From a virus, in the IMG/VR virus record IMGVR_UViG_3300002098_000013: a DNA stretch of 40,248 bases, one strand, 5' to 3'. The notes beneath the pieces were generated by a model, which did not search any database, was not told the DNA's origin, and was given only the letters and a program-made list of their open reading frames with translations. The translations under genes were made by a program, and so were the position numbers. Each line of letters starts with the position of its first letter. Position 1 is the first letter of the stretch. Shown here piece by piece: positions 17,839 through 24,601 of the stretch.

Positions 17839-17880
17839 AAACCCGATCAATCTTTGCGGATTGACCGGGTTTTTCGTTTT
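17839..17880 (+). terminator. Rho-independent terminator
   Basis: AAACCCGATCAATC-TTTGCG-GATTGACCGGGTTT forms a 14-bp stem with one mismatch. It is followed by TTTCGTTTT, immediately after the stop at 17833. Confidence 0.7.
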
Positions 17881-17934
17881 GTGAAACGCCGCGAAAGCTG
17901 CCAAACAAGGCGAAGTGATTCGGGAGGAACCGGA

Positions 17935-18612
17935 ATGTCTTTTGCGCTTACCCTCGCCCAAGTGGGCGAACTTAACCCCCGCGCGGGCAGGCACGCCTCC
18001 GCGCTCAATCACCTGCCCGCTGATGCGGCGATCACCGCCCCGCAGGCACTCGCGGCGGGCTGCACTTTCGCCGAACTCGTTTGGCTGGTGTGCGCGCGGG
18101 CGCGTAAAGACCCCGCCGTCGAGCGCAGCGTACGGTTGTGGCTTGCGGATTGCGCCGCGCACGTCCTGCCCGTTTTTTACAAAGCGGCCCCCACCGATCT
18201 CCGCCCCGCGCAAGCGATCGAGGCGGCTCGATCCTTCGCCAACGGCAAAATACCGGCCGCTGCTCGGGCCGCTGCTTGGGCCGCTGCTCGGGCCGCTGCT
18301 CGGGCCGCTGCTCGGGCCGCTGCTTGGGCCGCTGCGGAGGACGCTGCGGAGGACGCTGCTCGGGCCGCTGCTTGGGCCGCTGCTTGGGCCGCTGCTTGGG
18401 CCGCTGCTCGGGCCGCTGCTCGGGCCGCTGATCGGGCCGCTGCTTGGGCCGCTGTTTGGGCCGCTGCTCGGGCCGCTGCTGGGGACGCTGCGGGGGCCGC
18501 TGCGGGGGCCGCTGCTGGGGACGCTGAAAGAGTTTGGCAGTTAGACCGGCTCATTATGTGGCTTTCCGACGTGGAACCTGAAGTGCTCGCGCTGCCGGAG
18601 CCGGGCGCGTGA
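17935..18612 (+). CDS. Ala/Trp/Arg 4-residue-repeat protein with an Imm5-like N-terminal region
   Basis: 225 aa from the ATG at 17935 (GGGAGGAACCGGA RBS). The N-terminal part (RLWLADCAAHVLPVFYKAAPTDLRPAQAIEAARSFANGKI) resembles, from memory, 'putative immunity protein' (Imm-5-like) domains. About 22 AAxA units follow (AARAAAWAAARAAAR...). Confidence 0.65.
   Translation: MSFALTLAQVGELNPRAGRHASALNHLPADAAITAPQALAAGCTFAELVWLVCARARKDPAVERSVRLWLADCAAHVLPVFYKAAPTDLRPAQAIEAARSFANGKIPAAARAAAWAAARAAARAAARAAAWAAAEDAAEDAARAAAWAAAWAAAWAAARAAARAADRAAAWAAVWAAARAAAGDAAGAAAGAAAGDAERVWQLDRLIMWLSDVEPEVLALPEPGA
18255..18525. repeat. Tandem 12-bp repeat (GCCGCTGCT[CT]GG and variants, about 22 units)
   Basis: Read directly. 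All six frames are open across it, which explains several overlapping track ORFs there. Confidence 0.9.
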
Positions 18613-19070
18613 CCCAAGTACTTTTGGCAATTGACCCCGGCAAGACCGGCGCCATCGCGATTTTCCGCGAGAGGCACTTGGTGGCCATCGGCGCGGCCAC
18701 GGCAAGGGCGTTCGTCGTGAGGCTTTGGGACCTGCCCGGCGCGCGCGTCGTGATTGAGCAAGTCAACGGCGTGCCGGGCCAGTCCGGCCCCGCCAGTTTT
18801 AACTTCGGCAAGGCTTACGGCGAGCTGCTAGGGGTGTGCATCGCGCTCGATGTCGAGCCTGTGCTGATCCGCCCGACAGACTGGAAAGCTGGTTTGGGGC
18901 TGCGCCGCGAGTTCGGCGAGAGCAACGCCAGTTTCAAGCGCAAGTCTCTGGTGATGGCGCGTGAGCTTTGGCCGCAGTACGCCAAGAGCTTCTTCGCGCG
19001 GTCCAAGGATGACGGCGCGGCAGAGGCTGCGCTGCTTGGGCGCTACGCCTTGACACAGGGGATCGTATGA
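18609..19070 (+). CDS. RuvC-like Holliday junction resolvase
   Basis: 153 aa. The GTG start overlaps the upstream stop (GTGA). LLAIDPGKTGAIAIF (first catalytic Asp), VVIEQV, and the C-terminal KDDGAAEAALLG are typical of the RuvC/RNaseH-fold acidic residue arrangement. Confidence 0.75.
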   Translation: MTQVLLAIDPGKTGAIAIFRERHLVAIGAATARAFVVRLWDLPGARVVIEQVNGVPGQSGPASFNFGKAYGELLGVCIALDVEPVLIRPTDWKAGLGLRREFGESNASFKRKSLVMARELWPQYAKSFFARSKDDGAAEAALLGRYALTQGIV

Positions 19071-19315
19071 GCAGCGGAGGCGACCACGGCGGCGGGATCG
19101 TGCTTCGGCACCGCGAGCGACTGGCCGCGCGGAAGAAGTTCACACGGCCAGACCTCGCCGCTGCGGCCATTGCGCGCCGCCACGATCTCGCGGAGCGCGT
19201 AGCGAACGGCGCGACGCCTGCAGAAGCGGGCAGGGACATGGGTCTGAACGCCGAGGTTGTGCGCCGGATGTGGGTGGAAATCTGCCGGGGTCTGGGTGAA
19301 AGCGTGCGGCCGTGA
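19067..19315 (+). CDS. Small hypothetical protein, possible HTH
   Basis: 82 aa, ATGA-coupled to the ruvC-like gene. GATPAEAGRDMGLNAEVVRRMW resembles a LuxR/sigma region 4-type HTH. Confidence 0.5.
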   Translation: MSSGGDHGGGIVLRHRERLAARKKFTRPDLAAAAIARRHDLAERVANGATPAEAGRDMGLNAEVVRRMWVEICRGLGESVRP

Positions 19316-20436
19316 CAGCCTACTATAACGAGCATGATCCTTACGCCGCCGAATGGCTGCGCCGTTTGATCCTGAATGGCCACATTGCGCCCGGTGACGT
19401 TGACGAAAGCGACATACGAGATGTTCGACCCGACGACCTCAAAGGCTACACCCAATGCCACTTCTTCGCCGGAATCGGCGTGTGGAGCCACGCCTTGCGC
19501 CGCGCCGGGTGGCCCGATGATTGGCCAATCTGGACAGGTTCCTGCCCATGTCAACCTTTCAGCGCGGCGGGCGCAAGAGCTGGGTTTGCTGACGAGCGGC
19601 ACCTATGGCCGGCCTTTAACCACCTTATCGGCGAGTGCCGCCCTCCAATCATCGTTGGAGAGCAAGTTGAAAACGCAGGCGACTGGCTCGATCTTGTATC
19701 GACTGACCTGGAAGCACAAGGTTACGCCTTCGGGGCGGCGTTTCTGCCTGCTGCGGGCTTCGGCGGCGCGCATATCCGATCCCGCAGTTACTGGATGGCC
19801 TACCATCGTGGCGACGGACGCGATCAAACAAGGACAAGTGTCGCCGCGCCCGGGCGCGATGGGTTTGAGCGAGACGGCACCTTTGGCGGGATGGACGACC
19901 ACCAACACGGCAGACGCCAAAAAGGCGACGGAATCGCGGGACAGGCCGCGCGGCGTGACGATGCCGGAGCAGGCGCAGTTGTCGAGCTGGGCGACGGCGA
20001 GCAGCCGCGATTGGAAGGACACGCCGGGCATGGCGACCGAGGCGACCAACCCGGACGGATCGGAGCGGACAAGGCTCGACCAGTTGCCCAGGCAAGCGAC
20101 GCTGGCCGGTTGGACGACACCCCAAGCGCACGACACGCAGGGACGCAGCAAGACCCAGAAGGCGATTCACGGCACGAAGCACGGCTGCGCGTGCTTGGCG
20201 TTGGACGCGGACCTGACGCACTGGACGACGGACGACGGCCCAGCGCGCCTATGCTCGGACGGAACTCTGCTGACTGGCTGTTCTGCCGGGATGGCAAGTG
20301 GCGGCCGGTTGAACCCGGCACATCCCCGCTGGTTGATGAGACTCCCGCCCGAGTGGGACGCTTGCGCGCCTTCGGCAATGCCCTCGATGCTGAAACGGCA
20401 ACGCGGTTCCTCGAAGCGGTGATGGCAAGCCTGTGA
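19312..20436 (+). CDS. DNA (cytosine-5) methyltransferase, frame A (N- and C-terminal parts convincing, middle doubtful)
   Basis: GTG start. Motifs present: I-like FFAGIGVW, IV SCPCQPFS, VI-like GEQVEN, VIII-like HIRSRSYW (aa 1-165). The C-terminal ADWLFCRDGKWRPVEPG...RLRAFGNAL carries a motif X-like GNA. Residues ~166-320 are R/G/D-rich, as expected for the off-frame of a GC3-rich gene. Confidence 0.6.
   Translation: MTAYYNEHDPYAAEWLRRLILNGHIAPGDVDESDIRDVRPDDLKGYTQCHFFAGIGVWSHALRRAGWPDDWPIWTGSCPCQPFSAAGARAGFADERHLWPAFNHLIGECRPPIIVGEQVENAGDWLDLVSTDLEAQGYAFGAAFLPAAGFGGAHIRSRSYWMAYHRGDGRDQTRTSVAAPGRDGFERDGTFGGMDDHQHGRRQKGDGIAGQAARRDDAGAGAVVELGDGEQPRLEGHAGHGDRGDQPGRIGADKARPVAQASDAGRLDDTPSARHAGTQQDPEGDSRHEARLRVLGVGRGPDALDDGRRPSAPMLGRNSADWLFCRDGKWRPVEPGTSPLVDETPARVGRLRAFGNALDAETATRFLEAVMASL
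19376..20422 (+). CDS. Overlapping frame-B ORF with methyltransferase-associated motifs
   Basis: 348-aa ORF in the +1 frame relative to frame A. It contains LQSSLESKL...LYRLTWKHKVTPSGRRFCLLRASAARISD. G/S/H-W-x-T motifs recur (GWPT, GWTT, SWAT, GWTT, HWTT). The C-terminus reads GGRLNPAHPRWLMRLPPEWDAC. By eye, codon third positions are overwhelmingly G/C in its central part. Confidence 0.5.
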   Translation: MATLRPVTLTKATYEMFDPTTSKATPNATSSPESACGATPCAAPGGPMIGQSGQVPAHVNLSARRAQELGLLTSGTYGRPLTTLSASAALQSSLESKLKTQATGSILYRLTWKHKVTPSGRRFCLLRASAARISDPAVTGWPTIVATDAIKQGQVSPRPGAMGLSETAPLAGWTTTNTADAKKATESRDRPRGVTMPEQAQLSSWATASSRDWKDTPGMATEATNPDGSERTRLDQLPRQATLAGWTTPQAHDTQGRSKTQKAIHGTKHGCACLALDADLTHWTTDDGPARLCSDGTLLTGCSAGMASGGRLNPAHPRWLMRLPPEWDACAPSAMPSMLKRQRGSSKR

Positions 20437-21767
20437 ACGACCCCCTCTTCCCCTACCAAATTGAAGGCGCCGCGTTTATCGCCGCGCGCCCCCGCGCAGG
20501 GCTGTTCGACGCCCCCGGCTTGGGCAAGACTGCCCAGGCGATCCGCGCAATGGACGAAGCCGGGCTGGTGCGCGGCATCATCGTTTGCCCCGCCAGTGTG
20601 CGCAACGTCTGGCCGGGCGAGTTCCGCAAGTGGTCGCGCACCCCGCGCAAAGTGCTCAAAGGGCTGACCAACGACGATCTGAACCTGTGGCTGCGCGAGC
20701 GCGTCGACGTGCTAGTGGTCAGTTATGAGGGTGCGAGCAAGTGGCACAACGAGTTGCAGCGCGACCTGCGCGACTTCACGATCTTCGACGAGTTCCACGC
20801 GCTCAAGAATATTGGGAGCAACCGCACCCGCCGCGCGCTCGGCTCTGACGGCTCGGGGGCGCACGGATATGCGCGCTACGGCGCCTACACATGGGCGCTC
20901 ACGGGCACCCCGATGGCGAATGACCCCTCAGACATCTGGACATTCCTGCGCTACGTCGGCGGCACGCCGCTATCGTTCAAGAACTTCACCACGCGCTACT
21001 TTATCCAGATCAACAGCGGCATGAGCACCAGCTACAGGCCACGCCGCGACACGCTGCCCGAACTGAAAGAGATTCTGGCGCGCTATTCGATCCGCCGCAC
21101 CGTTGAGCAAGTCGGCATCGAACTGCCGCCGCTGTGGATCACCACGCAGGAGATCGAGGGCTCGACGGCAGAGATCAACGCGCTACTGGCCGCGCACCCC
21201 GGTTTGGACACCGCAATCACGTCGGCGATCGAGAAGGGCGGGCTACAAAAGCTGGACGAGCTGGCCGGGCACGTCACGACGCTGCGCCGTCTGGTGGGCG
21301 AGGCCAAGGCGCCGGTCTACGCGCGGCAGTTGATCGAAGAACTGAACGGCGGCAAGGACAAGGTCGTCGTGTTCTGCGCCCACAAGCGCCCGGTCGAGAT
21401 TCTGTGCGAGGCGCTGCGCCATCACGGTGTCGGTTTCGTCAAGATCGACGGCTCGGTTGGCGACAAATCCAGAGGCGAAGCTGTCGAGGCGTTCCAGACT
21501 AACCCGGCGGTCAAGGTGTTCATCGGCAACATCATCGCCGCCGGGACGGGCATCACCCTGACCGCTGCGCCGTATCTGGACATGCTCGAAATGAGTTGGA
21601 GTCCCGCTGACAACGCCCAAGCGTTAAAGCGCGTCCACCGCATCGGCCAGACGCAGCACACAAATGTGCGCTTCATCAGCCTTGCAAAATCCATCGACGA
21701 GCAGGTTTCGGAAGTGGTTGCGCGGAAGACCCGGGCGATCGTTGACGTACAAGGGGGCGAGATATGA
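20433..21767 (+). CDS. SNF2-family helicase
   Basis: 444 aa. The GTG start overlaps the upstream stop. Motifs: LFPYQIEGAAF, motif I DAPGLGKTAQAI, motif II DEFHALKN, and the helicase C motif VI RVHRIGQT. Confidence 0.85.
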   Translation: MNDPLFPYQIEGAAFIAARPRAGLFDAPGLGKTAQAIRAMDEAGLVRGIIVCPASVRNVWPGEFRKWSRTPRKVLKGLTNDDLNLWLRERVDVLVVSYEGASKWHNELQRDLRDFTIFDEFHALKNIGSNRTRRALGSDGSGAHGYARYGAYTWALTGTPMANDPSDIWTFLRYVGGTPLSFKNFTTRYFIQINSGMSTSYRPRRDTLPELKEILARYSIRRTVEQVGIELPPLWITTQEIEGSTAEINALLAAHPGLDTAITSAIEKGGLQKLDELAGHVTTLRRLVGEAKAPVYARQLIEELNGGKDKVVVFCAHKRPVEILCEALRHHGVGFVKIDGSVGDKSRGEAVEAFQTNPAVKVFIGNIIAAGTGITLTAAPYLDMLEMSWSPADNAQALKRVHRIGQTQHTNVRFISLAKSIDEQVSEVVARKTRAIVDVQGGEI

Positions 21768-22204
21768 GCCGGGCATATGGGGAAGTTGTCGGCGCTGACC
21801 TCGAAGACGCGCAGCGCCGCGCGGAGACGCGGTGGGCGCCTTGGGCCGATGTCGGGATGTTGTGGCGCGTTGAGGCCGTCCGGTATTCGGCCTGCGAGCT
21901 GACCGTGTCGGGCGGCGAGTACTACTTCACCACGGAGCCCCGGCTTGAGATTTTCGGTGAAGAGGTCGGCAAGTGGACGCCTTGCGGCGCGCGGCTGCGC
22001 TATTCCGGGCGCTGGGTCGACTTGCGGGACGGGGCCAAGCAGTACGCCAGCCGCACTGTCGCTGAGGCTGTGGCGCAGTTCGCGCGGCGCCGCAAAGGCC
22101 AGCTTTATATTCTCGCGCGGCAGACGCGTCGCGCGCAAGAAGACCTGTCGCTAACGACCGTGTTTAACCAAGGAGGAAGAAATGCATATCAAGTTGGAGA
22201 TTAA
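21764..22204 (+). CDS. Hypothetical protein
   Basis: 146-aa ORF, ATGA-coupled to the SNF2 gene. No motif was recognised. Confidence 0.55.
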   Translation: MSRAYGEVVGADLEDAQRRAETRWAPWADVGMLWRVEAVRYSACELTVSGGEYYFTTEPRLEIFGEEVGKWTPCGARLRYSGRWVDLRDGAKQYASRTVAEAVAQFARRRKGQLYILARQTRRAQEDLSLTTVFNQGGRNAYQVGD

Positions 22205-22640
22205 TGCCGAGAGCGTCGAAGAGTTCGATGCAGCGGTGGCGCGGTTCTCACCGGGTCGCATCGCGGCCCCGGTGCGCGAACCGCAAGACGCGCGGGGGTC
22301 GACTGCCGCCGAAGCAGAAACCCCCTTGGACCCGCCGGCGACGAAGACGCGCCAGCGCAAGCCGAAAGACGAGCCGGCCCCCGATGCCGGCTCTTCGACC
22401 GCGCCGGATGCTTCGACCCCAAGTGCCCAAACCGAATCCGAGACGGCTTCTGACGAGCACCCCATGCTCGCCCCGAAGACCTTGGCCGAGGTCAAGGCGC
22501 TGGGGAACAAGAAGGTGGGTGAACTCGGCGCCGGGCCGGTCCAGCAGGCGCTGGCCGATAACTTTGGCGTTAAGGCGTTCGGCGGGCTGGACCCTGCCGA
22601 CTACGACCGCGCCTACGCCGTGCTGGACGTGTTGAAATGA
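22182..22640 (+). CDS. Hypothetical protein with disordered acidic/Pro-rich centre
   Basis: 152 aa with a strong RBS (AAGGAGGAAGAA-ATG). It lies immediately upstream of the PD-(D/E)XK nuclease. Confidence 0.6.
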   Translation: MHIKLEINAESVEEFDAAVARFSPGRIAAPVREPQDARGSTAAEAETPLDPPATKTRQRKPKDEPAPDAGSSTAPDASTPSAQTESETASDEHPMLAPKTLAEVKALGNKKVGELGAGPVQQALADNFGVKAFGGLDPADYDRAYAVLDVLK

Positions 22641-23902
22641 AGCACTCACCCTTCGGCGGATCGGCGGCCAGCCGGTTCATGGCCTGCCCCGGGAGCATTG
22701 CGCTCTCGGGGCGGGCGCCCCCCGAACGCTCCAGCCCCTACGCAGAGGAAGGCACCTTCGCCCACGCGGTCGCCGCCGAGGCGCTGGAAACCAGCGCGCG
22801 GTCGACTACAGCGGCCATTGGCAAGATGCTCGCGTTCCGCGACCACGGCGAAAGCAAGACGCGCGAGGTCACCGCAGAGATCAGCAAGGCGGTGGACGTC
22901 TACCTCGAAGCGGTGTGGGATGAGTTTGACCTCGACCCCGACGCGGAGATCGAGGTCGAGCAGGGCTTTGCCTTGGAAATCGAAGCGGCAGAGCCCGGCG
23001 AGGTGTTCGGCACGAACGACGCGCTGATCTACAGCCCGGCGCGGCGCAAGCTGACGATCTTCGACTACAAGCATGGCGCGGGTGTCCTGGTCGACGTCGA
23101 GGACAACACCCAGCTCAAGTTCTACGCGATTGGCGCCATGCAGGGGCACCCCGACTGGGACGTGCGCGAGATCGAACTGGTGATCGTCCAGCCGCGCGCC
23201 TTCTCGGCTGGCGGCGACGGGGTTAAGCGGTGGTCGCTGCCGATGGCGGAGGTTATCGAGTTCCCCTACGAATTGAACGAAGCGGTGGCGGCGTGCAAAG
23301 CGCCAGACGCGCCGCTGGCGGCGGGGGACCATTGCCGCTGGTGCCCGGCCAGCGCAATCTGCACCGCACGCGAGCAGGCCTTCGTCGCCGCAGTGCGCGA
23401 AGACTTCGCAGGCGTCGACCTGATCGGCATCGAGCCAGTGGCACTGGCGATCGATCCCGCGTCTCTGGATTTCGACCACATGGCCGAGCTGGTCGCAGCT
23501 TATGATCGTCTTGGGCCGTGGGTTTCATCGATGCGGACGGCCATGGACGAACACCTGCTGGCCGGCGGAAGCGTCAGGGGGTGGAAGGTTGTCGAGCAGG
23601 TCGGGCGGCGCGCATGGACCGTGGGCGACCAAGAGATCGCGGACTACCTCGAACTCATGTACGACGTGCCCGGGGACGAATTGCGGCCCCGTAAACTGGT
23701 GACGATCACCGACGCGAAGAAGCTGCTCAAGACCTACGTTGGCAAGGGGGAATACGCCGAAGCCGAGCGGGACATGACACTCAAGTTCACCATCAAAGAA
23801 TCGAAGGGGCTGACCACGGCCCCGGAGAGCGACCGCCGGGCGGCAATATCGCCGGTCGCCGCAGAGTTTGGCTCTGTGATGCTCGGAAATGAAAGCGACT
23901 GA
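22637..23902 (+). CDS. PD-(D/E)XK nuclease, Cas4/DUF2800-like
   Basis: 421 aa. The N-terminus is SPFGGSAASRFMACPGS. The nuclease core is DALIYS...LTIFDYKHG. The Cys cluster DHCRWCPASAIC, together with the N-terminal Cys, fits a Cas4-type Fe-S cluster pattern. ATGA-coupled. Confidence 0.8.
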   Translation: MKHSPFGGSAASRFMACPGSIALSGRAPPERSSPYAEEGTFAHAVAAEALETSARSTTAAIGKMLAFRDHGESKTREVTAEISKAVDVYLEAVWDEFDLDPDAEIEVEQGFALEIEAAEPGEVFGTNDALIYSPARRKLTIFDYKHGAGVLVDVEDNTQLKFYAIGAMQGHPDWDVREIELVIVQPRAFSAGGDGVKRWSLPMAEVIEFPYELNEAVAACKAPDAPLAAGDHCRWCPASAICTAREQAFVAAVREDFAGVDLIGIEPVALAIDPASLDFDHMAELVAAYDRLGPWVSSMRTAMDEHLLAGGSVRGWKVVEQVGRRAWTVGDQEIADYLELMYDVPGDELRPRKLVTITDAKKLLKTYVGKGEYAEAERDMTLKFTIKESKGLTTAPESDRRAAISPVAAEFGSVMLGNESD

Positions 23903-24551
23903 CATGACACTGATGGCCGATACCAACATGACCGACGAATGGATCAGGAAGGCGTGCGAGCGCAATCCGATCCGCGTTCTGGACAGCGGCAACATTCTGC
24001 TCTGCCCGACGCGCGGCTCGTTTCTAAACCTGTTCGAGCGGTCTCGCCCGATCCCGCCAGCCACCGAAGGCAGCTATGGCGGCAACCTGATCTTCCCGAC
24101 CTGCGCTGACCTGTCGGTGCTTGAGCAGGCGGTGGTCGACGTTCTGAAAGAGAAGTGCCCCGACGCGCTCTCGGCGGACCCCAAGAAGCGGGTGAAGGTG
24201 AAAAGCCCGTTCAAGGACCAGGGCGATATGCTCAAGTACGAAGGCTACGTTGAAGGGGGGAAGTTCATCTCCGCCACCAGCAAGAAGAACCGCCCGACCT
24301 TGGTCGACGCGCGCCAGCAAATCGTCACCGACGAAACGCTGGTCTACCCTGGTGTATGGGTGGTCTGCACCGTGCGGCCCTTCTGGTACGACAAGGGCGT
24401 CAACAAGGGCGTGTCGTTCGGGCTGCAAAGCGTGATGCTCGTTGCCGATGACAAGAACCTTGGCGGCGGTGGCGGCGGAAACATCGCCGCAGACTTCGCG
24501 GGCGTCAACATCGACGCCGGCGACGTCGACACCACCGGCCTGTTTGACTGA
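23889..24551 (+). CDS. DUF2815-like protein (putative ssDNA-binding protein)
   Basis: 220 aa. GNILLCPTRGSFLNLFE...FKDQGD...GKFISATSKKNRPTLVD...VYPGVWV...GVSFGLQSVMLVADD matches my recollection of DUF2815. That family normally sits next to DUF2800 and PolA. The start could instead be ATG 23904. Confidence 0.7.
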   Translation: MKATDMTLMADTNMTDEWIRKACERNPIRVLDSGNILLCPTRGSFLNLFERSRPIPPATEGSYGGNLIFPTCADLSVLEQAVVDVLKEKCPDALSADPKKRVKVKSPFKDQGDMLKYEGYVEGGKFISATSKKNRPTLVDARQQIVTDETLVYPGVWVVCTVRPFWYDKGVNKGVSFGLQSVMLVADDKNLGGGGGGNIAADFAGVNIDAGDVDTTGLFD

Positions 24552-24601
24552 CAACCTCTGTGCGCCGCTTCGGCGGCGCACAGTTTTCCGAGGAGGGAAA
24601 G

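Follow-up and report, generated by a model that had tools for sequence, protein, structure and literature searches.

Overlapping reading frames in a phage cytosine-5 methyltransferase locus, each under purifying selection, and their candidate role as a two-chain enzyme

The window analyzed here is the whole 40,248-nt stretch of viral DNA in IMG/VR record IMGVR_UViG_3300002098_000013, and the element in question is a cytosine-5 (C5) methyltransferase locus at positions 19312–20436 on the (+) strand. Comparative analysis of this locus indicates that it encodes two long proteins in overlapping frames, A and B, both of which are open and under purifying selection. On the basis of the sequences and of an analogy with the published enzyme M.EcoHK31I, we consider it reasonably likely that the products of A and B together constitute a two-polypeptide C5 methyltransferase resembling that enzyme. 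The two open reading frames (ORFs) described earlier from the letters alone agree with the program-made ORF listing, including an in-frame TGA (19373–19375) that immediately precedes the ATG of B at 19376. The overlap amounts to 1,047 nt, i.e., 93% of A, and B lies wholly within A. All of the motifs quoted in that preliminary description were found in their frames and places, as listed below.

19312–20436, (+) strand: ORF A, GTG start, 374 aa, with catalytic core, stop-free spacer and a C-terminal part containing motif X
19376–20422, (+) strand: ORF B at its maximal extent, ATG start, 348 aa, frame +1 relative to A, candidate second polypeptide
19321–19371, (+) strand: frame A, motif II-like segment YYNEHDPYAAEWLRRLI, upstream of motif I
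19462–19485, (+) strand: frame A, motif I, FFAGIGVW, the S-adenosylmethionine (AdoMet)-binding glycine loop, aligned to M.HhaI
19540–19563, (+) strand: frame A, motif IV, SCPCQPFS, with the catalytic cysteine, aligned to M.HhaI
19657–19674, (+) strand: frame A, motif VI, GEQVEN, aligned to M.HhaI
19771–19794, (+) strand: frame A, motif VIII, HIRSRSYW, aligned to M.HhaI
20272–20319, (+) strand: frame A, DWLFCRDGKWRPVEPG, in the C-terminal part of A
20359–20385, (+) strand: frame A, motif X, RLRAFGNAL, with G355 and N356 invariant in 67 members
19694–19780, (+) strand: frame B, LYRLTWKHKVTPSGRRFCLLRASAARISD, in the N-terminal part of B
19793, 19889, 19985, 20108 and 20219, (+) strand: frame B, five [GSH]W[PTA]T motifs (W-P-T-P modules)
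20306–20359, (+) strand: frame B, motif IX-like element RLNPAHPRWLMRLPPEWD, which matches motif IX of mycobacteriophage ShiLan gp70

Two further frame B elements, RDWKDTPGM and DQLPRQA, fall within 19793–20239, and a tandem-repeat search detected no DNA-level repeats in the W-P-T-P region.

The evidence for two constrained frames comes from a selection map of related loci. Each set of loci was collected through its similarity to either A or B, so the continuity of the frame used for retrieval is partly ascertained, and the selection tests use either the frame not used for retrieval or contrasts within the gene. As the loci are phylogenetically related, column-wise p-values are indicative only, and the argument is carried by effect sizes (identities of 0.38 versus 0.76 to 0.82, and 0 versus 203 stops). 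Across 76 distinct loci, the +1 frame was open for 269 to 531 codons (median, 86% of A), compared with means of 110 to 240 codons after codon shuffling, and the +2 frame was open for only 42 to 162 codons. In the centre of the locus, frame A contained no stop codon in any of the 76 distinct genome loci, compared with 203 expected from shuffles of the B codons, with a median per-locus probability of zero frame A stops of 0.054. In comparison, the third frame contained 355 stops in the centre, with 345 expected. The difference between 0 and 203 stops implies that frame A has been kept open in the centre even though its sequence is free to vary there.

Synonymous sites tell the same frames apart along the locus. 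In a +1 overlap, the third position of an A codon is the second position of a B codon, so that every change that is synonymous in A alters B. Identity at four-fold degenerate third positions of A (A3) was 0.38, i.e., near saturation, over A codons 2–80 and 0.76 over codons 81–150 (Mann-Whitney p = 1.5e-11 between the two), and it was 0.82 over codons 311–350, compared with 0.54 over codons 351–372 (Mann-Whitney p = 1e-5). The converse test uses four-fold degenerate third positions of B (B3), which are first positions of A. Their identity was 0.70 over A motifs IV–VIII and 0.74 over the C-terminal part of A, versus 0.38 in the centre (p = 1e-13 and p = 1.5e-11, respectively). An independent set of 101 viral loci reproduced the resulting zone map, which is given here in window coordinates.

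19312–19551, (+) strand: zone constrained in A only; four-fold A3 identity 0.38, A3 identity 0.36–0.58 across the 101 loci
19552–19791, (+) strand: dual-coding zone 1; A motifs IV–VIII over the N-terminal part of B (LSARRA...LLTSGTYG...LYRLTWKHKVTPSGRRFCLLRASAARISD)
19793–20239, (+) strand: zone constrained in B only; B3 identity 0.38, first and second B positions above third positions in aligned blocks, with A read as an R/G/D-rich, stop-free spacer
20242–20361, (+) strand: dual-coding zone 2; A APMLGR...DWLFCRDGKWRPVEPG... over B GPARLCSDGTLLTGCSAGMASGGRLNPAHPRWLMRLPPEWD
20362–20436, (+) strand: zone constrained in A only; A3 identity returns to the A-only pattern

In dual-coding zone 2, all three codon positions showed identities of 0.67 to 0.91 across the 101 loci, and in total ~360 nt are constrained in both frames. 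These contrasts show that purifying selection acts on both frames over the overlap. The preliminary description had named a genuinely overprinted second gene among its explanations, together with a comparison of homologous loci as a way to recognize one, and this is what the comparison supports: both frames stay open (in ~190 loci, see below), and positions that could change silently in one frame are conserved exactly where the other frame is.

The window has a G+C content of 65% and contains many long spurious ORFs. In neighbouring genes, the G+C contents of the first, second and third codon positions (GC1, GC2 and GC3) are ~0.65, ~0.45 and ~0.83, with GC3 ranging from 0.80 to 0.84. The centre of the locus has a similar profile only when read in frame B (0.57, 0.62 and 0.85), and GC3 of frame A is only 0.60 to 0.68 in both flanks. 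The third-position bias tallied by eye in the preliminary description is thus borne out by computation, and the R/G/D-rich middle of A that it took for off-frame sequence corresponds to ~150 codons constrained in B only. A separate candidate, openness of A in the centre as a by-product of the G/C-rich third positions of B, was tried and rejected: shuffles of the B codons still predict 2 to 3 stops per locus.

All of the ~190 related loci examined, with G+C contents of 45 to 73%, carry the A/B pair. B-like sequence was present at +1 in all 28 viral loci found through A, and in all 80 viral loci found through B, a single open frame held both the N-terminal and the C-terminal part of A. Among 80 loci taken from as many bacterial species (50 to 73% G+C), both frames were continuous in 79; these species span the Alpha-, Beta-, Gamma- and Deltaproteobacteria plus a few other groups. 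None of the 160 loci ascertained through B contained B apart from A. Loci retrieved via a B homologue hold an uncalled but intact A in the −1 phase, i.e., they are the same loci, called in either frame. The annotated records that we examined list one frame only, either A or B, and the SAP012 locus carries no annotation at all.

The two-frame form is also the rule among cultured phages. It was found in all 60 top cultured-phage records, and its carriers include Salmonella phage epsilon15 (gp41, ~51% G+C), Burkholderia phage BcepC6B, Edwardsiella phage eiAU, Pseudomonas phage PMG1, Escherichia coli phage K1G, Rhodobacter phages and a 147-kb lytic Salmonella myovirus of 45% G+C. B was present as well in the three most distant phage members of the A family that we examined, which reach down to 45% G+C. 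Some members vary: SAP012 (L202) lacks the DWLFCRDGKW element of A and keeps the MLMGIPAEW motif of B, and in short family members of ~250 to 270 aa, the spacer is nearly absent. When 6 kb of the window (18600–24600) was used as a query, the methyltransferase locus (19311–20450) was the only part alignable as DNA to cultured phages, with 74 to 76% identity to 236 records whose hosts differ widely (Erythrobacter, Ralstonia, Burkholderia, Pseudomonas, Escherichia, Klebsiella and others). Such DNA-level conservation across unrelated phages resembles recent transfer, yet it is better explained by the double coding constraint. Literature searches on overlapping genes, dual coding, phage methyltransferases, Mte8 and epsilon15 gp41 brought up no account of such a layout in phages.

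Both frames contain methyltransferase-family sequence, as the preliminary description had supposed, and a separate profile search of each frame, which it had proposed as a check, gave the following picture. PF00145 matches frame A with 47.9 bits (cutoff, 22), with a match that spans motifs IV–VIII only, and phrog_363 matches A over its full length (1e-71). A has more than 8,000 homologues in the database. The sequence match of A to M.HhaI has an E-value of 3.4e-13, and an hhalign alignment to the same enzyme covers motifs I and IV–VIII (E = 9.5e-12). TIGR00675 matches with 3.2e-10, which is below its curated cutoff, placing A residues 4–170 on profile positions 25–163. A contains the catalytic Pro-Cys of motif IV together with motifs I, VI and VIII, and PCQPFS of motif IV is invariant among the 67 family members. 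Constructed hybrids (A-B-A, spacer-deleted A and two alternative C-termini) left the PF00145 match where it was, at motifs IV–VIII. As a side observation, the relatives P0039 and P0242 carry an insertion of ~40 aa inside motif VIII (AAGF...AVDYLKTVYGEWLERAIHDCPDS...GGAHIR).

The order of motifs in A is permuted. Within window positions 19321–19563 (residues 4–84), a II-III-like segment (YYNEHDPYAAEWL...DIRDV) lies ahead of motif I, which sits between this segment and motif IV, in contrast to the canonical I, II, III, IV. The permuted order is supported by profile alignments to M.HhaI, TIGR00675 and ShiLan gp70, all three independent of one another: the M.HhaI alignment leaves a 35-residue gap at HhaI motifs II–III, and the gp70 alignment pairs the II-like segment of A with motif II of gp70 and leaves the motif I segment of A as an insertion. 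To our knowledge, the order II-III, I, IV has not been described in C5 methyltransferases. At the other end of the protein, motif X (FGNAL) lies in frame A, the best motif IX match lies in frame B, and A has a weak IX-like stretch (E = 0.21).

B belongs to a large family of its own. A word-indexed search returned 3,695 homologues at 40 to 50% identity and 90 to 97% coverage, none with a Pfam domain, and an exhaustive HMMER search with B matched 10,171 representatives of 50%-identity clusters, 7,483 of them at E ≤ 1e-10. B also matches two PHROG families labelled DNA methyltransferase. Beyond A codon 43, frame B is free of stops in all 101 viral loci. An ATG equivalent to that at 19421 is present in 71 to 72 of these loci, 47 of which have an upstream GGAG, GAGG or AGGA, and an ATG equivalent to that at 19517 is present in 43; the window's ATG at 19376 is not conserved. 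Judging from this conservation, B probably starts at ATG 19421 or ATG 19517. B-level constraint starts only at ~19552, so that the first 40 to 60 residues of B are either free to vary or untranslated.

A single-frame relative makes it possible to compare the parts of A and B with one continuous enzyme. Mycobacteriophage ShiLan gp70 carries motifs I–VIII, LLPTP repeats, RLAPAFSEWMMGWPAGW, 16 further residues and GNGVVPQQ, all in one frame. The N-terminal part of A aligns with the gp70 core (hhalign E = 1.4e-17), the repeat unit of B aligns with the LLPTP unit of gp70 (E = 0.0046), and B QLNPAHSRWLMGLPPEW aligns with gp70 residues 334–350 (RLAPAFSEWMMGWPAGW; hhalign E = 6.8e-5 and 4.8e-4). The alignment of the C-terminal part of A with gp70 motif X (RNDQLRIIGNGV) is weak and not significant (E = 0.21). 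Relative to the one-frame enzyme, these alignments indicate that the motifs run from A (core) to B (variable region and motif IX) and back to A (motif X), and that the repeats and C-terminal motif of B represent the ancestral methyltransferase variable region and motif IX, now in another frame. The 85 N-terminal residues of B have no counterpart in gp70. Since they lie on motifs IV–VIII, whose frame A reading is universal, this part of B appears to have arisen by overprinting. The +1 frame of gp70, the only available single-frame control, contains 7 stops and shows only 21% shadow identity to the N-terminal part of B. The earlier notion of overprinting is narrowed to the N-terminal part of B, which looks de novo; the repeats and C-terminal motif of B represent ancestral methyltransferase sequence.

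A further observation on gp70 itself (L198:709-1878) concerns its repeat region, in which two LLPTP/MLPTP units lie in the +1 frame right after motif VIII, where frame 0 reads a 'SADAADAN' shadow, and three further repeat units lie in frame 0. Frame slips within the repeat region may therefore be common in this superfamily.

A search with a hybrid query uncovered natural single-frame fusions of the N-terminal part of A to the centre and C-terminus of B in Klebsiella, Pseudomonas (a RefSeq multispecies protein), Morganella, Desulfovibrio and other hosts. That the junctions lie at different positions implies that the fusions arose by separate one-base events. Three fusion loci from Pseudomonas and Klebsiella prophages (L112, L113 and L114, encoding P0275, P0241 and P0255) still contain a separate open ORF for the N-terminal part of B, and two of them retain an intact C-terminal part of A in the third frame. 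The fusions are a minority, and their closest cultured-phage relatives have the two-frame form.

Insertions downstream of B bear on the continuity of A. In a metagenomic close relative (L199:405-1886, protein P0009), an HNH ORF (HVHHVDEDW...NLQTLCIFCH) lies in the B phase directly after the B stop, and frame A reads through this hidden ORF without a stop as far as motif X, for a product of 493 aa. This stop-free read-through again shows that selection acts to keep frame A continuous up to motif X. In L114, the B stop is likewise followed by a similar HNH gene (L114:2494-2976), and motif X of A has decayed there.

Structure models were obtained for one of the fusions. The AlphaFold model of P0275, built from 54 aligned sequences, has a catalytic domain with a predicted local distance difference test score (pLDDT) above 90 despite the permuted strand order, and Foldseek matched this model to M.HhaI, M.HaeIII, DNMT2 and DNMT1 (E ~5e-8) over the catalytic domain only. 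The B-derived part of the model has low confidence except for the HSRWLMGL helix, which reaches a pLDDT of ~88, versus ~50 in B modelled alone. These models are compatible with docking of the motif IX-like helix of B on the core of A.

The observations can be assembled into a working scheme. One transcription unit would yield two proteins from nested, same-strand frames, with B starting within A at +1, probably at 19421 or 19517, and ending at 20422. A, which carries motifs II–III, I and IV–VIII, would supply AdoMet binding, catalysis and motif X, and would read an unconstrained spacer of ~150 codons, kept stop-free by selection, before its motif X part. B would supply the elements of the small domain, i.e., the variable (target-recognition) region in the form of W-P-T-P modules and the motif IX-like helix. 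The new N-terminal part of B, over motifs IV–VIII of A, may mediate association, and A and B would probably assemble as one active enzyme.

Several results weigh against this scheme. B has no match in Pfam or NCBIfam, and a profile of the B family has none among all Protein Data Bank sequences even at E = 10. Against M.HhaI, the B family gives a single local alignment, which falls on motif IX (residues 273–291) and is not significant (E = 0.41), and the motif IX match of B is short (17 to 23 columns). A strong Shine-Dalgarno sequence is lacking at both candidate B starts in the window (19421 and 19517). Modelled alone, B has a pLDDT of 57 and a predicted template modelling score of 0.25, with only a helix and a few hairpins at moderate confidence. 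The C-terminal part of A (DWLFCRDGKW..PG..GNA) shows a weak similarity to gp70 motifs IX and X (E = 0.21), with DWLFCRDGKWRPVEPG on the motif IX region, and A might therefore be self-sufficient. Translation of B from an internal start, binding between A and B and a joint need for methylation are steps that we infer from sequence and analogy, and the likeness to M.EcoHK31I is drawn from published descriptions.

A competing explanation is that A alone is a complete, active methyltransferase, with DWLFCRDGKWRPVEPG as a minimal recognition element and the centre as a tolerated junk loop, while B does a separate job (e.g., regulation, DNA binding or counter-defence). It would account for the weak single-frame alignment of the C-terminal part of A with gp70 motifs IX and X, for the family members of ~250 to 270 aa with nearly no spacer, for the N-terminal part of B without a methyltransferase counterpart and for the poor model of B alone. 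However, a single-frame enzyme has homologues of the repeats and C-terminal motif of B in its variable region and motif IX, B never occurs apart from A in the 160 loci ascertained through it, independent natural fusions link the core of A to the centre and C-terminus of B, and SAP012 has lost the DWLFCRDGKW element of A while keeping the MLMGIPAEW of B. We regard a self-sufficient A as less likely, though plausible. A bolder version of the two-protein interpretation holds that, of all long pairs of overlapping genes on one strand in tailed phages, this may be the one with the widest distribution. B would then be more than a detached piece of the enzyme: a distinct protein with an N-terminal domain that arose de novo over the catalytic core, serving as a specificity or regulatory subunit that can be exchanged and dosed separately. 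The number of W-P-T-P modules could then change with no effect on the catalytic chain, because A reads that DNA as a tolerant spacer. We put this version forward tentatively, as a possibility that we would not yet bet on.

Recoding into a single polypeptide would dispense with a second chain: a +1 shift after motif VIII (~19795), possibly followed by a −1 shift before motif X (~20355), would restore the sequence of core, variable region, IX and X. The motif order A, B, B, A does equal that of the single-frame gp70, and the natural fusions join the N-terminal part of A to B at the DNA level. Programmed frameshifting, which the preliminary description had also raised, nevertheless fits the junctions poorly, as an X_XXY_YYZ heptamer occurs at the first junction in none of the 101 loci, the longest homopolymer at either junction is usually 3 to 4 nt, the first junction is among the least conserved stretches of the locus, and no Rfam family matches anywhere in the window. 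Recoding also leaves unexplained the ~150 stop-free codons of frame A (0 stops versus 203 expected, with A open to 20436), the constraint on frame B over 240 nt upstream of the shift and the constraint on frame A at 20242–20361, and we judge it improbable. An artefact, whether two compensating sequencing or assembly indels (the remaining suggestion of the preliminary description) or a decaying pseudogene held open by high G+C content, could appeal to the common spurious ORFs of a 65% G+C window and to relatives that are indeed frameshifted (e.g., L018). It is contradicted by the same layout in ~190 independent loci, among them finished genomes of cultured phages, phages of 45 to 51% G+C and 80 bacterial species, by the +2 frame, which is not open, and by frame-specific constraint in both frames; we give it practically no credence. 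The reading that we retain is the two-protein locus, with A and B as the probable chains of one methyltransferase.

The locus lies in a phage replication module that includes an SNF2 helicase, a DUF2800/PD-(D/E)XK nuclease, a family A DNA polymerase and a primase-polymerase. GTGA start/stop overlaps at 19312–19315 and 20433–20436 join an upstream 82-aa ORF, A and the downstream SNF2-type helicase gene, which suggests translational coupling along an operon. Farther upstream, a 12-nt tandem repeat (GGCCGCTGCTCG; 22.7 copies, 90% matches, window 18255–18526) lies within an ORF at 17854–18612, which has a weak, below-cutoff Pfam match to an Imm5-like family. The repeat encodes an alanine-rich repeat of the AARAAAWAAA type, and several frames are open there on both strands.

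For long dual coding in double-stranded DNA phages, the locus offers an unusually clear natural example, in which single- and double-coded zones are clearly separate, and it points to a way in which a frameshifted stretch of an enzyme can survive as a second subunit, with the original frame retained as a linker free of stops. If the two-chain interpretation holds, many phage orphan C5 methyltransferases would be two-chain enzymes with a permuted AdoMet-binding half, and a methyltransferase ORF expressed alone could fail or shift in specificity. The large B family has remained invisible or 'hypothetical' because annotation software and curators accept only a single gene at a locus and because neither Pfam nor NCBIfam holds a model for it. 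DNA-level conservation of this locus across unrelated phages, which we attribute to the double constraint, should not be taken as recent horizontal transfer.

The closest published parallel is M.EcoHK31I, which, with M.AquI, makes up the natural two-chain C5 methyltransferases on record (Lee, Kam and Shaw 1995 for M.EcoHK31I, as summarized in PMC2836561 and PMC3404938). According to these descriptions, the beta chain of M.EcoHK31I is nested out of frame in the gene for alpha, which carries motifs I–VIII, motif X and the recognition domain, while beta carries motif IX, and both chains are required (PMC2836561, PMC3404938). The locus described here resembles it in having a smaller polypeptide in another frame wholly inside the gene of the larger chain, in internal Met codons at which the smaller chain can start and in the split of motifs I–VIII and X versus IX, where the assignment of motif IX to B comes from an alignment of 17 to 23 columns. 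It differs in that the variable-region repeats lie on B and the spacer of A is unconstrained, whereas the recognition domain of M.EcoHK31I is reported to be on alpha; in the sizes of the chains, as beta is a smaller subunit with motif IX only and B has 348 aa to the 374 of A; and in the extra N-terminal part of B overprinted on motifs IV–VIII and the placement of II-III before I. Moreover, M.EcoHK31I belongs to a restriction-modification system, whereas the present candidate is a phage orphan spread over much of the Proteobacteria virome. By this analogy, the locus would represent a known, rarely seen nested two-chain arrangement in a much more extensive and more widely distributed form.

M.AquI is described as divided within its variable region into an alpha and a beta chain, the smaller of which carries both motif IX and motif X (PMC3404938). 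It shares with A and B the division of a C5 methyltransferase into complementing chains, and the fusion loci L112 and L113 resemble it, with a chain of core plus variable region and the motif X part in a separate frame. Here, in contrast, the second gene is nested over ~1 kb, and motifs IX and X are on different chains. ShiLan gp70 has a homologous core, (L/W)PTP modules and the sequence L-x-P-x-x-S-x-W-[LM]-M-G-x-P-x-x-W followed by G-N-x-V, but it has everything in one frame and in the canonical order I, II, III, IV.

Actinophage methylases can contain out-of-frame homing-endonuclease insertions (the 'ShiLan domain'), which are patchy and selfish and in which the endonuclease is confined to the insert (PMC11855218). 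There too, a stretch of the methylase is read stop-free as a loop in the host frame while the other frame is a real protein, and the hidden HNH ORF of L199 is a true example of this kind in a proteobacterial phage. B, in contrast, is present in all loci, contains no HNH or other Pfam domain and spans conserved motifs on both sides. With classical viral overprinted genes (PMC8227390), the locus shares a same-strand overlap, purifying selection on both frames and a B N-terminus without an outside homologue, but most of B is ancestral methyltransferase sequence displaced into another frame, and the products of the two frames are probably parts of one enzyme.

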